DNA from: an uncultured Gemmatimonadales bacterium
GTDB lineage: Bacteria > Gemmatimonadota > Gemmatimonadetes > Gemmatimonadales > GWC2-71-9
Length of the DNA: 64,000 bases
Assembly (NCBI GenBank): GCA_963730185.1
Contig: CAVSQW010000015.1
Span: 160,001-224,000, forward strand
Direction of reading: 5' to 3'
Below are positions 14,588 to 25,910 of the stretch, piece by piece; position 1 is the first letter of the stretch; each line of letters opens with the position of its first letter. The notes beneath the pieces are model-generated. The model saw only the letters and a program-made list of their open reading frames with translations. It was not told the origin of the DNA and made no database searches. Made by a program: the position numbers and the translations under genes.

Positions 14588-16144
14588 ATGACGACGACCG
14601 CCCCGATCTCCGCTCCCGCCGCACTCCCCCGCCGCACCGTCGCCGAACCGTTGCGCCGCCGATCGCGGACGGCCTTCCACTCCCGCGCCCAGGTGGTACA
14701 TCTCTCGGCCGAGTATGGTGCCCTGGCCCGGACCGGCGGCCTGGCTGAGGCGGTCGAAGGCCTGGCGCGAGCCCAAGCCCGGACCGGATCTCCCCGGGCG
14801 GCGGTGATCCTCCCCCTTTACCCCGCGCTCCGGCGCTCCGGGCGGTTTGTCCCATTGGCCTCCGACGGCCGCGCCGATCCGGGGGCGGTTCCGGTGTGGC
14901 GGGATGTGGCTCAGGCGGAGGCGGGACAACCCGACGTCCTGGCGCTGGACCTCCCTGGCTTCGACCGCCCGGGAATCTACGGCGAGGACGGCGTCGACTA
15001 TCCGGACAATCCCGCCCGTTTCTCGACCTTCGTGCGGGCGGCGCTCGAGGTCATGCCGCGACTGACGCCGGCCATCCGGGTGCTGCACGTCCACGACTGG
15101 CACGCGGGCCTGGCCCCAGCCCTGCTCCGTACCGAGTGGGCCGGCCGGCGATTCTACGACGCCATCGCGACGGTCCTGACCGTGCACAACGGGGCCTACC
15201 AGGGGCGCTTTCCCCGAGGAGTGTGTGACGGGCTAGGCCTTCCGTCCGCCGTCCTCGACGCCTTGGTGCCTGACCGTGAGGGGCGCCTCGCCTGGCTGGA
15301 CCTCGCCCTTCGGTTTGCCGACCTGGTGACCACGGTGAGCCCGAACCACGCCGAGGAGCTCCGGACGCCGCTGGGCGGCTTCGGCCTCGACGATCGCTAT
15401 CGGGCCTTGGGCGACCGGCTGGTCGGGATTCGAAACGGGATCGACGCCATCCACTGGGATCCCGCGACGGATGGGGCCTTGCCGGCCTTCTTCCAGGCCG
15501 GCTCCCGCGCCGGACGGGCCGCCAGTCGGACGGCGGTCGACCGGGCCCTCGGCTTTCCCTCGGACGGGGCACCGCTGATCGGGCTCGTCGGTCGACTGGT
15601 CGAGCAGAAAGGCATCGACCTGGTCGCCGATGGTCGGCTGGTCGAGTGGTTTCCGGAGGCGCGGTTCGTCGTGATGGGCGAGGGGAGGCCGGAGTACCGG
15701 GACCGGCTCCGCGGGTTGGCGGCGCGGTTTCCCGACCGGGTCCGGGCGCCGCTGGCCTTCGACGAGGGGTTCGAGCGCCGGCTCATGGCGGGCGCGGACC
15801 TCGTGCTGGTGCCCTCCCTGTACGAACCCTGCGGGCTGGCGCAGCTCCACGCCCAGCGGTACGGGGCCGTGCCGGTGGTACGGCGGGTCGGCGGCCTGGC
15901 GGACGCGGTGGTGGACGGGGTGACGGGATTCGTCTTTGACGAGTATTCCGTGCCCGCCCTCGCGGAGGCCTTGGGCCGGGCGCTCGCCGCCCGGCGGAAC
16001 CCGATCGGGTGGCCCGTGTTGGTGGAGCGGGTCATGCGGCTGAATGTCGGGTGGGACGACGCGGTGCCTCGGTTCCGCGACGTCTATCGGGCCGCCTGCA
16101 CCCGTCACGCCGCCTGGGAGGTGCAGGCGCATCGGAACCCGTGA
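14588..16144 (+). CDS. glgA: Glycogen/starch synthase (GT5)
   Basis: RTGGL, HVHDWH, TVHNGAYQG, PSLYEPCGLAQL, VGGLADAV; ATG 14588. Confidence 0.88.
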   Translation: MTTTAPISAPAALPRRTVAEPLRRRSRTAFHSRAQVVHLSAEYGALARTGGLAEAVEGLARAQARTGSPRAAVILPLYPALRRSGRFVPLASDGRADPGAVPVWRDVAQAEAGQPDVLALDLPGFDRPGIYGEDGVDYPDNPARFSTFVRAALEVMPRLTPAIRVLHVHDWHAGLAPALLRTEWAGRRFYDAIATVLTVHNGAYQGRFPRGVCDGLGLPSAVLDALVPDREGRLAWLDLALRFADLVTTVSPNHAEELRTPLGGFGLDDRYRALGDRLVGIRNGIDAIHWDPATDGALPAFFQAGSRAGRAASRTAVDRALGFPSDGAPLIGLVGRLVEQKGIDLVADGRLVEWFPEARFVVMGEGRPEYRDRLRGLAARFPDRVRAPLAFDEGFERRLMAGADLVLVPSLYEPCGLAQLHAQRYGAVPVVRRVGGLADAVVDGVTGFVFDEYSVPALAEALGRALAARRNPIGWPVLVERVMRLNVGWDDAVPRFRDVYRAACTRHAAWEVQAHRNP

Positions 16145-16156
16145 CCGGGGCGGACG

Positions 16157-16335
16157 CAAAGAAGAGGCGGAGGGTCTCGCCTCTCTCGAGACCCTCCGCC
16201 TTTCCCTCGTTCGGCGTCCGGATGGAGAGTCCGGTGGAGTCCCGCTGCTCTAGGCTTGGCGCGGGTCGCCGACGGGAGCGGCCGACGACGGCCGACCGCT
16301 CCAGGCCGACGGCGTCCTTCACTTCCACCCTCGGC
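16157..16335 (-). ncRNA. Candidate small RNA A (~180 nt)
   Basis: Own repeat-array promoter (TATCGT), several hairpins, terminator, no credible ORF; ends estimated. Confidence 0.45.
16165..16201. terminator. Bidirectional intrinsic terminator
   Basis: Perfect 15-bp stem AGGCGGAGGGTCTCG/CGAGACCCTCCGCCT with pyrimidine tails on both strands. Confidence 0.8.
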
Positions 16336-16341
16336 ACTCCA

Positions 16342-16386
16342 ACGATAGTCCGGAGCCGCTGAAGGGGCGGTGAGCTGACCGTGAAG
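16342..16386 (-). promoter_or_regulatory. Repeat-array promoter 5 (sRNA A)
   Basis: Minus strand CTTCA-N6-GCTCA-N6-CTTCA-N12-TATCGT. Confidence 0.68.
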
Positions 16387-16406
16387 CTTCGATGTCAGCG
16401 CCCGGG

Positions 16407-16556
16407 CAAACGACGGCCCCGGCGGCTCGGCTACGCCCCCGGGGCCTGGGAGTGGGTCGGGCAAGTGAACCATTCGGGTCACTTTCTTGAGACGCCGGCC
16501 ACCCGCGCCGACAGTCCCGTGGGCACTACCTTCGCCCTTCCTGCCGCCCGACCTTC
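16407..16556 (-). ncRNA. Candidate small RNA B (~150 nt)
   Basis: Own repeat-array promoter (TATCTT), multibranch fold closed by GGTCGGGC/GCCCGACC, 3' hairpin 16415-16446; ends estimated. Confidence 0.4.
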
Positions 16557-16562
16557 ACCATC

Positions 16563-16606
16563 AAGATAGCCTCGGCGCGTTAGGAAATGGCGAAGCTCGC
16601 TTGACG
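16563..16606 (-). promoter_or_regulatory. Repeat-array promoter 6 (sRNA B)
   Basis: Minus strand CGTCA-N6-CTTCG-N6-CCTAA-N11-TATCTT. Confidence 0.55.
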
Positions 16607-16638
16607 TCCCGTTCATCGTCGGGGAGGGACGCCGGCTT

Positions 16639-16683
16639 CTTCGTCGCCGCTTCAGGTCTTCTTCAACCGGTCCCGCCCAGATT
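16639..16683 (+). promoter_or_regulatory. Repeat-array promoter 7 (USP2)
   Basis: CTTCG-N6-CTTCA-N6-CTTCA-N12-CAGATT. Confidence 0.7.
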
Positions 16684-16720
16684 GCCGGTATGGGCTTGGT
16701 GGGCCCGGGAGGAGGATCCG

Positions 16721-17626
16721 ATGCTTCGCTCGCTCGTGGTTCCGCTCGATGGCTCGGGCTTCGCCGAGACCGCGATTCCCGTCGCCCGGGCGCTGGCTCG
16801 TGCGGCCGGGGCGTCGATTCGCTTGGTGATGGCGCACCAGCCGAGTCCGGTCCTGGTCGGGGCCTCCGCCCCGGACGACCGGGAGGTGCAGGCCCAGGAA
16901 CGCACCTACCTCGCCGCCCAGGCGGCCGACCTCCGGCAGCTGGCGTCAGGTCCGGGCTCGCAGGTGCTGCTCGAGGGGCATCCCGGTCCCGCCCTGGTCG
17001 AGTGGCTCACGGCGGAGCAGCCGGACCTCGTGGTCATGGCCACCCACGGGCGCGGCCCCGCCAGCCGGTTCTGGCTCGGCAGCGTGGCCGACTACCTGGT
17101 TCGCCATGCCCGCGCGCCGCTCCTGCTGCTCCGGCCCCCGGCGGCCGAGGGGCCGCAGGCGGCCCCGACCTTCCGGGCTGGCCTGGTCGCGCTCGATCTG
17201 TCCAACCGGGCGGAGGCCGTCCTGGAGACGGTGGCGCCGCTGGCCCTCGCGACCCAGGCGCACCTGACCCTGCTCTACGTACTCGAACCCGGTCTGGGCA
17301 TGGCCGGCACGCCGGCGCCCTACCCCGTCTCGCTGCCGCACGACTTGCTGGAGCACACCCGCGAGGAGGCCCAGCGCTACCTCGATGGCGTGGCCGACCG
17401 GCTTCGGACCCGCGGACTCCAGGTCGCCACGAAAGTCCTCGTTGGCTTCGGCGTCGCCGGCGCCTTGTTGGCACAGTTGGGTCGCGACGAATACGACTTC
17501 GTGGCCGCCTCCACCCATGGTGCCGGCGGCTTCCGGCGGATGCTGATCGGCAGCGTGGCCGACAAACTGGTGCGGGGCGCCACCAAGCCCGTGCTGTTGG
17601 TGCGGTCGGATCGGCATCTGCCCTGA
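16721..17626 (+). CDS. Universal stress protein, tandem domains (USP2)
   Basis: GGAGGAGG RBS; VVPLDGSGFAE, ATHGRG...LGSVAD, STHGAGG...IGSVAD. Confidence 0.92.
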   Translation: MLRSLVVPLDGSGFAETAIPVARALARAAGASIRLVMAHQPSPVLVGASAPDDREVQAQERTYLAAQAADLRQLASGPGSQVLLEGHPGPALVEWLTAEQPDLVVMATHGRGPASRFWLGSVADYLVRHARAPLLLLRPPAAEGPQAAPTFRAGLVALDLSNRAEAVLETVAPLALATQAHLTLLYVLEPGLGMAGTPAPYPVSLPHDLLEHTREEAQRYLDGVADRLRTRGLQVATKVLVGFGVAGALLAQLGRDEYDFVAASTHGAGGFRRMLIGSVADKLVRGATKPVLLVRSDRHLP

Positions 17627-19181: not shown

Positions 19182-19275
19182 CCACGCAGGCAGGTGAACC
19201 ATGACGACGAAGCTCGGAGGCGCCGGCCGAGAAGGGGCGGCGCAGGCGCTGTCGGACCTGGGGAGGGAGGGGATC

Positions 19276-19863
19276 GTGACCGAGACCACGAAACGGAGTC
19301 GCACCAGCCGCGAAGCCACCGAGGCGCCGCCGACCTGTCAGATCGTCGCCAAAGCTCTCGAGGTGGATCCCGGCATCCAGGCCCTGATCCGGCGCGAAGC
19401 CCGCAAGCTGAGCCAGTTCTTCGACCGGATTCTCGACGTTCGCGTGGTCGTGAGTACGCCGCACCGGCGCCTCCATCGCGAGACGGTCGACTACGCCGTC
19501 CGGATCTACCTGGCGGTGCCTCGCGACGAGCTGGTGGTGAAGCGCCAGCGTGACGCCGATCTTCGGACCGCCATCCAGGCGGCGTTCCGGGCGGCGGGGC
19601 GGGTGCTCCAGGACTACGCCACCCGGCGGCGCGACCCACCGCCGGTCCAGGCGAAGGCGCCCGTGGGGCGGGTGAGTCGGCTGTTCCCGTACGAAGGCTA
19701 TGGCTTCCTCACCGGCGAAGACGGCACCGATCTCTACTTCCACCGCAACGCGGTCGCCGGCGGCCGGTTCGACGAGATCGCGGTCGGCGAGCGGGTTCGC
19801 TACGCCGCGGCCGAGGGCAATCTGGGGCCGCAGGCGAGCCGGGTGACCCGGGGACGCCGGTGA
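19276..19863 (+). CDS. HPF/RaiA-like domain fused to cold-shock domain
   Basis: KLSQFFDRILDVRVVV...DLRTAIQAAF, then YGFLTGEDGTDLYFHRNAV; GTG 19276 has GGAGGGG RBS (alternative ATG 19201). Confidence 0.85.
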   Translation: MTETTKRSRTSREATEAPPTCQIVAKALEVDPGIQALIRREARKLSQFFDRILDVRVVVSTPHRRLHRETVDYAVRIYLAVPRDELVVKRQRDADLRTAIQAAFRAAGRVLQDYATRRRDPPPVQAKAPVGRVSRLFPYEGYGFLTGEDGTDLYFHRNAVAGGRFDEIAVGERVRYAAAEGNLGPQASRVTRGRR

Positions 19864-23113: not shown

Positions 23114-24312
<1,199 letters not shown>

Positions 24313-24480: not shown

Positions 24481-24723
24481 ATGGCCGCCGTCGATGTCGC
24501 CGAGCGGTCGAACAAGCTGACGCGGTGGAGCCGGTCGACCTGGCAGTTCCTGGTCGATACCCGGGCCGAGTTGCGCAAGGTGACCTGGCCGACGTGGCCG
24601 GAGCTCAACGACGCCACCAAGCGCGTCCTGATCATGACGCTCGCGATCGGCATTGCGCTCGGTCTGCTGGATCGGGCGCTGCAGTTCATCCTGGTGGACG
24701 GCATCGCCGCGATCGCCCGGTAA
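24481..24723 (+). CDS. secE: Preprotein translocase subunit SecE
   Basis: ELRKVTWPT motif, one TM segment, synteny. Confidence 0.93.
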   Translation: MAAVDVAERSNKLTRWSRSTWQFLVDTRAELRKVTWPTWPELNDATKRVLIMTLAIGIALGLLDRALQFILVDGIAAIAR

Positions 24724-24727
24724 GTCC

Positions 24728-25274
24728 ATGGACTACCGCTGGTACGCGATCCAGGTCACCGCCGGACACGAGAACAAGGTCAAGGGACTCCTCGAGCGAC
24801 GGATCGGCGAGGACCCCCGGCCCGAGGACTCGAAGCTGGTCCGGCAGGTGCTCGTGCCGGTCCAGGAGGCCATCGAGATCAAGAACGGCAAGAAGGTCGT
24901 GGTCGAGCGGAAGCTCTATCCCGGCTACGTGCTGATCGAGACCACGATGAGCCAGGAGGCCCAGCACCTGGTCAACAGCGTGCAGGGCGTGATCAAGTTC
25001 GTGGGCAGCGGCCGGGGAGCGCCGCTTGGCGCTCCGGCAGGACGAAGTCAACCGGCTGCTCGGGATCGTCGAGGAGACCGCCGACCAGGCCCCCAAGGAG
25101 GAGATCCCCTTCATGGTCGGCCAGGCGGTCGAGATCACCGAAGGGCCGTTCTCGGAGTTCAGCGGGACGGTCGAAGAGGTGCTGGCGGATAAGGGCAAGG
25201 TGAAGGTCTCGGTGTCGCTCTTCGGGCGGCCGACGACCGTCGAGTTGGACTACTTGCAGCTCCGAGGGCATTGA
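24728..25274 (+). CDS. nusG: NusG (apparent +1 frameshift near 25012-25028)
   Basis: WYAIQVTAGHENKV, YPGYVL, KOW GPFSEFSGTVEEV, FGRPTTVEL split across two frames. Confidence 0.93.
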
Positions 25275-25483: not shown

Positions 25484-25910
25484 ATGGCAAAGAAAGTCGT
25501 GGCCATGGTCAAGCTCCAGTGTCCCGCTGGAGCCGCCAATCCGGCGCCGCCGGTCGGCACGGCGCTGGGCCCGCAGGGCGTGAACATCATGGACTTCTGT
25601 AAGCAGTTCAACGCCCGCACCCAGTCGCAGGCCGGGATGGTCATCCCGGTCGTCGTGACGATCTATCAGGATCGCACGTTCACCTTCATCACCAAGACCC
25701 CGCCGGCGGCGAATCTGCTGCTCAAGGAGGCGGGCATCGAGAAGGGCAGCGCCCAGCCCAACCGCACCAAGGTCGGGACGGTCACCGCGCGCCCAGCTCA
25801 AGAAGATCGCCGAGCTCAAGATGGAGGACCTCAACGCGGCGGACGTCAACTCGGCGATGAACATGATCGCCGGGACCGCGCGCTCGATGGGCCTGGAGGT
25901 GGCGGACTGA
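25484..25910 (+). CDS. rplK: 50S ribosomal protein L11 (apparent +1 frameshift near 25787-25791)
   Basis: [13 protein letters not shown]-terminus ...[14 protein letters not shown] lies in the shifted frame. Confidence 0.93.

Follow-up and report, generated by a model that had tools for sequence, protein, structure and literature searches.

A predicted small RNA behind a CTTCA-repeat regulon promoter in an uncultured Gemmatimonadales bacterium

Introduction

ResD and SrrA are regulators of the OmpR family, DosR is a NarL-type regulator with an inverted-repeat box, and the small RNA (sRNA) FnrS needs Hfq. RoxS of Bacillus subtilis and RsaE of Staphylococcus aureus are induced by the O2/NO-responsive ResD and SrrA, can pair through C-rich regions with Shine-Dalgarno (SD) sequences that are rich in G, depend little on Hfq and are conserved across genera, according to the accessible part of the source (PMC4409812). 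The enterobacterial FnrS needs FNR and is co-activated by the OmpR-family ArcA, which uses two to five direct repeats with 11-bp spacing (PMC3798270, part of the text). For Mycobacterium tuberculosis, the accessible portion of PMC5360333 places DrrS/MTS1338, which has a longer precursor, under a hypoxia regulator whose regulon includes universal stress proteins (USPs).

Hardly any RNA regulation has been described in the Gemmatimonadota, bacteria that are common in soil, and the literature consulted (mainly freely accessible main texts) yielded neither an sRNA nor a CTTCA regulon described for this phylum. In Gemmatimonas phototrophica lowered O2 raises cbb3 oxidase and a universal stress protein (PMC11406998, part of the text). 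Here we describe a predicted sRNA, RNA A, found in a 64,000-nucleotide stretch of DNA (the window) from an uncultured Gemmatimonadales bacterium. The host genome (G000) is 82% complete.

Results

Locus and promoter of RNA A

RNA A lies in a 576-bp gap between a glgA-like gene that ends at 16144 and a USP gene that starts at 16721, both on the plus strand. The main features of the locus are as follows.

14588-16144, plus strand: glgA-like glycogen/starch synthase (Pfam Glyco_transf_5; start codon uncertain), convergent with RNA A
16157-16335, minus strand: predicted small RNA A, about 179 nt, with its start placed at 16335 or 16334
16342-16347, minus strand: -10 element TATCGT, 12 nt past the last repeat
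16360-16386, minus strand: three CTTCA-type direct repeats of 11-bp period (CTTCA 16386-16382, GCTCA 16375-16371, CTTCA 16364-16360)
16639-16683, plus strand: regulon promoter of the USP gene, divergent from RNA A and the top site of the position weight matrix (PWM) at 33.8 bits
16721-17626, plus strand: universal stress protein gene (Pfam Usp)
19201-19863, plus strand: S30AE/HPF and cold-shock-domain (CSD) fusion with a regulon promoter in front, a candidate RNA-binding partner

The glgA stop sits 13 nt past the RNA A 3' end, and the glgA-like gene has a regulon promoter of its own upstream (24.4 bits). The surrounding cluster encodes USP, CBS, erythromycin-esterase, phosphoribosyltransferase, HPF-CSD and PEP-synthase-type proteins. 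Elsewhere in the window, a tuf gene (23116-24312) and a nusG-like gene (24653-25274) are split across frames and rplK near 25800 also appears frameshifted, all likely through assembly indel errors. Two contig ends of this 70% GC genome (C7 at about 730-750 kb and C12 at about 430 kb) are very AT-rich and are possibly contamination or chimeric joins.

A preliminary description of the locus had reported a minus-strand CTTCA/GCTCA/CTTCA-N12-TATCGT array and called it a regulon-type promoter that drives no protein. All motifs of the array are present, and the assignment to a regulon is borne out by PWM rank, a spacing peak and counts in congeners. With a PWM trained without the RNA A site (consensus CTTCA-N6-CTTCA-N6-CTTCA-N12-TAnnnT), 35 sites over 20 bits were detected genome-wide in G000, among which the RNA A promoter ranked 14 at 28.2 bits. 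At 34 of the 35 sites the next gene has the orientation of the promoter; one of these genes escaped the gene caller and was recognized by translation, and one of these sites is located within the end of the gene before it. The RNA A promoter is the sole exception. When the spacing d in nnTCA-N6-nTTCA-Nd-TAnnnT was varied from 5 to 29, eight matches were found at d=12 and eight at d=23, compared to 0-3 at each of the 23 other spacings; the pattern was derived from the RNA A promoter, which is itself one of the eight matches at d=12. A two-box pattern exceeded its reversed control by 68 to 2 in five congeners and by 27 to 2 in five further congeners.

Genes behind these promoters encode USPs, CBS proteins, Hsp20, cbb3 oxidase, hydrogenase small subunit, PFOR, a NapA/Fdh-like molybdoenzyme and peroxiredoxin, and several others gave no match in the family search. 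A box is also found upstream of a gene for an OmpR-type regulator (Response_reg and Trans_reg_C domains; G000:C15:147435-148133), as it is upstream of such a gene in loci of six congeners. This regulator gene adjoins a GAF-HisKA kinase gene (C15:148218-149363) and cbb3 oxidase genes, and the protein that it encodes is the presumptive activator of the regulon. The repeats at 16360-16386 are predicted to be the site of an OmpR-family activator that replaces a -35 element. Low oxygen or redox is the probable signal, because of the regulon content, the response of cbb3 oxidase and a USP to O2 in G. phototrophica and the 11-bp repeats of ArcA. On the basis of the regulon content, the term 'stress-induced' of the preliminary description is narrowed to likely low oxygen; induction itself is a prediction from sequence. 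Taken together, these 35 sites with their triple CTTCA repeats form an OmpR/GAF-kinase regulon that is conserved in the genus, includes many leaderless members and is apparently undescribed.

Transcript start and coding potential

Over 149 sites, an ATG was most often located 6 nt past the -10 element (13 sites) or 7 nt past it (7 sites), compared to 0-3 sites at other distances. Since leaderless genes of the regulon begin 6-7 nt past the -10 element, the start of RNA A is placed at 16335 or 16334. From 16335, RNA A has no AUG and no start-stop open reading frame (ORF); its start codons are two GUGs (nt 8 and nt 14), whose frame has no stop in the RNA, and a terminal UUG. The two minus-strand ORFs of the region (16482-16105 and 16337-16032) cross the terminator and run into glgA, as first proposed; both scored negative in a dicodon model trained on the genome, and neither had a Pfam match. 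A six-frame search of the RNA A region for a protein remnant was likewise negative (best E 0.47). In the relative described below, all 7 of the 7 in-RNA codon differences in the long minus-strand ORF alter the amino acid. RNA A has the general properties of a trans-encoded sRNA, namely a promoter of its own, a terminator, no ORF and a length within 50-500 nt.

Predicted fold and terminator

The predicted elements of RNA A, in 5' to 3' order, are the following.

16305-16335, minus strand: 5' purine-rich hairpin with loop UGGAAGUGAAG, on which MFE, centroid and MEA folds agree
16275-16302, minus strand: 12-bp stem with loop CGUC, seen in sequence and fold and identical in the relative
16241-16265, minus strand: hairpin in which CCCGC/GCGGG encloses a 15-nt inner segment, seen in sequence and fold
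16235-16240, minus strand: single-stranded C-rich linker ACUCCA, predicted to be exposed
16218-16234, minus strand: 5-bp hairpin CCGGA-CUCUCCA-UCCGG, whose loop CUCUCCA is predicted to be exposed and is the best candidate seed; no listed difference in the relative
16158-16201, minus strand: intrinsic terminator with a perfect 15-bp stem (16201-16165) and a U-rich CTTCTTT tail

The 12-bp stem, the CCCGC/GCGGG stem, the CCGGA-CTCTCCA-TCCGG hairpin and the 15-bp terminator with its CTTCTTT tail had all been listed in the preliminary description and are present. The terminator is the strongest of three in 14 kb; a comparable hairpin with T-tail followed 48 of 1500 random intergenic starts. RNA A as a whole is predicted to fold into multiple hairpins, with no 6S-like rod, and the minus strand of its region folds better than the plus strand. 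With the terminator included, the folding z-score was -4.7, and 0 of 200 shuffles folded as well; it fell to a modest -2.4, -1.6 or -1.4 without the terminator, depending on which of three boundary choices was used; the terminator therefore provides most of the folding signal.

Divergence in a close relative

A close relative was found as a population in two soil DNA runs, which possibly stem from one campaign; its contigs have a depth below 5, and at positions 16199, 16201 and 16238 the coverage comes from a single run. Run X4, which is identical to the window over 16111-16261 and possibly its source, was left out of the comparison. In flanking, mostly coding pieces, 110 of 1940 letters (5.7%) and 64 of 1158 letters differ between relative and window. 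By contrast, only one placed difference was detected in the 144 nt of the RNA A body (16205-16348), compared to the 110/1940 of the flanks (Fisher p=0.006), or 3/144 when two unplaced differences of that contig are counted (p=0.083). The one placed difference (16238) lies in ACUCC, so that the CUCC match is lost and the linker remains C-rich. Differences in the promoter region (16349, 16376, 16387 and 16388) fall in spacer or flank, leaving the three boxes and the -10 element unchanged. The variable parts are the terminator region (9/60) and the promoter spacers (4/40).

Within the terminator the relative carries one compensatory pair (16167/16199), and at 16175, 16179 and 16201 it has changes that the minus strand accommodates as G-U pairs and that leave the plus strand with A-C mismatches. 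Pairing is thus kept at 15 of 15 positions on the minus strand compared to 12 of 15 on the plus strand. These data reveal a strand-specific terminator pattern, in agreement with the minus-strand orientation originally given, and an RNA A body that is little diverged in one relative. The body itself had no covariation in this comparison.

Distribution of RNA A

No Rfam family matches RNA A: at the gathering threshold only four tRNAs were detected in the whole window, and at E up to 10 only 14 sub-threshold hairpin matches were found in 16000-16800. Resemblances to SRP helix 8, c-di-GMP and TPP elements were dropped for want of Rfam support. Self-BLAST revealed a single copy of RNA A in G000, and no match was found in viral contigs or plasmids; a REP/MITE repeat was rejected on these grounds. 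BLAST against 100 relatives and 400 genomes of the phylum (2-6 candidates scored per genome in the latter search) returned short GC-rich noise and no homologue. A single-sequence covariance model (R1) run on 149 genomes also found no homologue; the best outside match had 27 bits, and no regulon promoter leads into any of the 29 loci fetched for its matches. Synteny searches with glgA (29 loci without the promoter, best relatives 45-49% identical), USP and cysS were negative for an RNA A homologue. A 17-mer scan of 27 of 64 metagenome parts gave 119 loci, none with flank similarity, and these loci were excluded from later scans. Pattern scans of genome collections gave 0 and 3 matches, the three being unrelated and actinobacterial. 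A match to the CUCUCC hairpin in congener G007 was rejected, as it lies inside a kinase-like gene. The unpublished genomes G035, G128 and G193 were not drawn on for any conclusion. RNA A is thus likely to be restricted to its lineage, judged by these searches, with a homologue only in one near-identical population.

A second candidate RNA and orphan promoters in congeners

A second and weaker orphan promoter is located upstream of RNA A.

16407-16606, minus strand: orphan promoter (boxes 16606-16580, -10 element TATCTT 16568-16563, spacer 11) and candidate RNA B

This promoter (PWM 19.8 bits) is 220 bp upstream of the RNA A promoter on the same strand. Candidate RNA B (about 16556-16407, about 150 nt) has a weak terminator, and its transcription may read through into RNA A. 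Its folding z-score was -1.5 to -1.9 on the minus strand and about 0 on the plus strand, and 16389-16550 has at most two differences and one gap in the relative (one contig). Alignment of RNAs A and B scored inside the shuffle range, and cofolding gained only about 7 kcal/mol over separate folds. Both RNAs have GUGAAGG around the 5' start and a C-rich ACUCC linker ahead of a GC hairpin. An inverted repeat, AAGTGA-N10-TCACTT (16479-16458), lies inside candidate RNA B and could be an RNA hairpin or the site of another factor.

Promoters without a gene were also sought in congeners, in the pieces fetched from their genomes, and the following were found.

L338:2487-2681 (G010:C48) and L348:1500-1694 (G003:C327), minus strand: orphan promoter with a three-hairpin RNA of about 145 nt and a terminator, after cysS-dodecin
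L448:11052-11458 (G015:C47), plus strand: orphan promoter and a gene-free stretch of about 360 nt that ends in a terminator, convergent on cysS

By inspection, the other sites flagged in these scans (13 of 72 in one) were mostly missed genes, weak sites and frameshifted genes. Between G010 and G003, differences numbered 4/103 in the RNA body, 105/1425 in cysS, 12/57 in the promoter and 6/213 in dodecin. This RNA pair has no Rfam match, no covariation and no exposed CUCC. Alignments of RNA A with it scored inside the shuffle range, and covariance model R2 was negative; an AGCAGCG hairpin end in common is not significant alone, and the G010/G003 model finds only the RNA A terminator (E=0.025 in 30 kb). 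The G015 orphan was found in one of 22 genomes; at z -0.77 its fold is no improvement on shuffles, and it may be a relic.

Predicted pairing and RNA-binding proteins

By prediction, both ACUCCA and CUCUCCA lie wholly open, with an opening energy of 0.02 kcal/mol each, and two exposed CUCC were found in 0 of 500 shuffles, for a motif chosen after the fact. GGAGG is the commonest SD word in the genome, and 54 of 4185 genes have GGAGAG in front of them. Targets were predicted with our own duplex-plus-accessibility script rather than IntaRNA. By this approach, energies fell inside the range of eight shuffled RNAs (3 hits below -10 kcal/mol compared to 0-36, for 1200 of 4185 genes), no coherent set of targets was seen, and pairing was dominated by the G-rich 5' hairpin; the best site was in nt 88-128 for only 77 of 4185 genes. 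Of the earlier suggestion that anti-SD-like ACUCC and CUCUCC are exposed and could pair with ribosome binding sites, the predicted exposure of both thus holds, and the pairing gains no support from energies that lie within those of shuffles or from a relative that alters ACUCC. Neither Hfq nor CsrA was found in G000 (82% complete). None of the 22 genomes of the genus gave an Rfam 6S match, and the gap between zapA and the next gene in G000 is only 37 nt.

Discussion

RNA A is probably a functional non-coding RNA. That it is specifically a stand-alone low-oxygen sRNA gene, controlled by an OmpR-family regulator and acting by base-pairing with other RNAs, we rate at about even chances. According to this model, low O2 or a redox change would lead the OmpR-type regulator encoded beside the GAF kinase to activate the RNA A promoter, and the RNA would be transcribed from about 16335 and stopped at the minus-strand terminator. 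The exposed CUCUCCA loop and the neighbouring C-rich linker might then seed pairing with G-rich ribosome-binding regions, the least supported step of the model. Such pairing would dampen translation without Hfq, and the activator would gain a repressive arm as ResD does with RoxS and FNR/ArcA with FnrS.

A less probable alternative that has to be reckoned with is an RNA A that is real and co-induced and works by binding protein or sponging RNA instead of anti-SD pairing. In one version RNA A would be a stable dormancy RNA with RNA polymerase, the ribosome or the neighbouring HPF-CSD protein as its partner; in another its G-rich 5' end would act against C-rich RNAs, the sponge being possibly a B+A transcript of about 400 nt. 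Near-invariance in the relative extends over the whole body and beyond a seed, and the S30AE and CSD fusion (19201-19863) stands behind a regulon promoter. The G-rich 5' segment that dominates predicted pairing recalls the G-rich regions of the sponge RosA (PMC8216469, part of the text), and MTS1338 of M. tuberculosis is reported to be bound by a cold-shock protein (PMC12840758), which we count for protein binding. The lack of an Rfam 6S match throughout the 22 genomes and the 37-nt zapA gap also count in favor of this alternative. It is weakened by the multi-hairpin fold without a 6S-like rod, by the failure to find CsrA in the 82% complete genome and by the small gain of the A+B cofold.

We consider it unlikely that the locus is a relic or by-product, in which a regulon promoter was orphaned when genes of a fast-shuffling stress cluster were lost or rearranged and now fires into a gap, the RNA is functionless and the terminator shields glgA from antisense transcription. 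Any transcription toward glgA would select a minus-strand terminator, RNA A is species-restricted, and the orphan transcripts of congeners are unrelated in sequence; the G015 orphan, with its shuffle-like fold, is divergent from an HhH gene at the place where G000 has the promoter of a CBS gene. By contrast, a relic would not be expected to have a body less diverged than coding flanks while terminator (9/60) and spacers (4/40) vary. A weaker form of the same pattern is seen between G010 and G003 (RNA body compared to cysS), though dodecin, at 6/213, is as little diverged as the RNA body. Furthermore, no protein remnant was detected in six frames, and a useless promoter would be expected to lose its boxes.

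A short peptide translated from GUG 16322, and ended by frameshift, read-through or ribosome rescue, is very improbable. An SD-like GAGG precedes this GUG by six bases, the first 18 or so codons are GC3-rich, and none of the differences listed for the relative falls within the first 33 codons. The frame has no stop ahead of the terminator, however, its dicodon score is negative and it has no Pfam or protein match; the conserved part lacks even synonymous changes, and the later in-RNA changes are all non-synonymous. Scarcely credible is a locus that is not transcribed, with boxes that serve the divergent USP promoter and a hairpin that is only the terminator of glgA: the hairpin is 21 nt past the glgA stop and symmetric in this genome, but the boxes point in the direction opposite to the USP gene, whose own promoter is 250 bp off, and have a correctly spaced -10 element, and the relative breaks three plus-strand pairs and no minus-strand pair, with 3 T in 8 in the plus-strand tail.

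More speculatively, and with little probability, Gemmatimonadota in which neither Hfq nor CsrA nor Rfam-type 6S is detectable might use the OmpR/GAF-kinase regulon to make fast-evolving structured RNAs from a cysS-linked stress cluster (A and B in tandem here, and others unrelated to them in G010/G003 and in G015), a new class of dormancy RNA that would act with the HPF-cold-shock-domain protein on ribosomes or RNA polymerase. If the preferred base-pairing sRNA is expressed, it would give a low-oxygen regulon an RNA arm that evolved independently and parallels RoxS, FnrS and DrrS, in a host that apparently lacks Hfq. The promoter matrix provides a 35-site regulon and a direct route to more such RNAs; the narrow distribution of RNA A limits its reach.

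Comparison with known systems

Like 6S RNA (RF00013) and Ms1-type RNAs, RNA A is about 180 nt in length and likely made in slow growth, in a genus without an Rfam 6S match. 6S RNA itself was rejected, as RNA A has no rod with central bubble and no match at E up to 1, is not at the zapA locus and is not conserved in the genus. A CsrB/RsmZ-type sponge was also rejected, with CsrA not found (incomplete genome) and only one GGA in a loop.

Similarly to RoxS and RsaE, RNA A has two C-rich regions predicted to be exposed, one of which is altered yet still C-rich in the relative. Its promoter carries the regulon motif, and an OmpR-type gene has a box of its own; binding of that regulator and an O2 signal are predicted. 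It differs in having no sequence or covariance-model match to them, in its phylum and binding box, in its narrow range and in having two C-rich sites at most, one of them variable. With FnrS it would share the role of sRNA arm of a low-oxygen regulon and the 11-bp direct repeats known for ArcA (PMC3798270, part of the text); unlike FnrS, it has no Rfam match, its repeat sequence is different and Hfq was not found in its host. DrrS/MTS1338 resembles it in a regulon that contains USPs, in a GC-rich host and in a precursor comparable to the possible B+A read-through, whereas the promoter of RNA A has OmpR-type direct repeats and its RNA has no sequence or Rfam match to DrrS. By analogy, RNA A likely works as RoxS, FnrS and DrrS do, yet belongs to none of these families.
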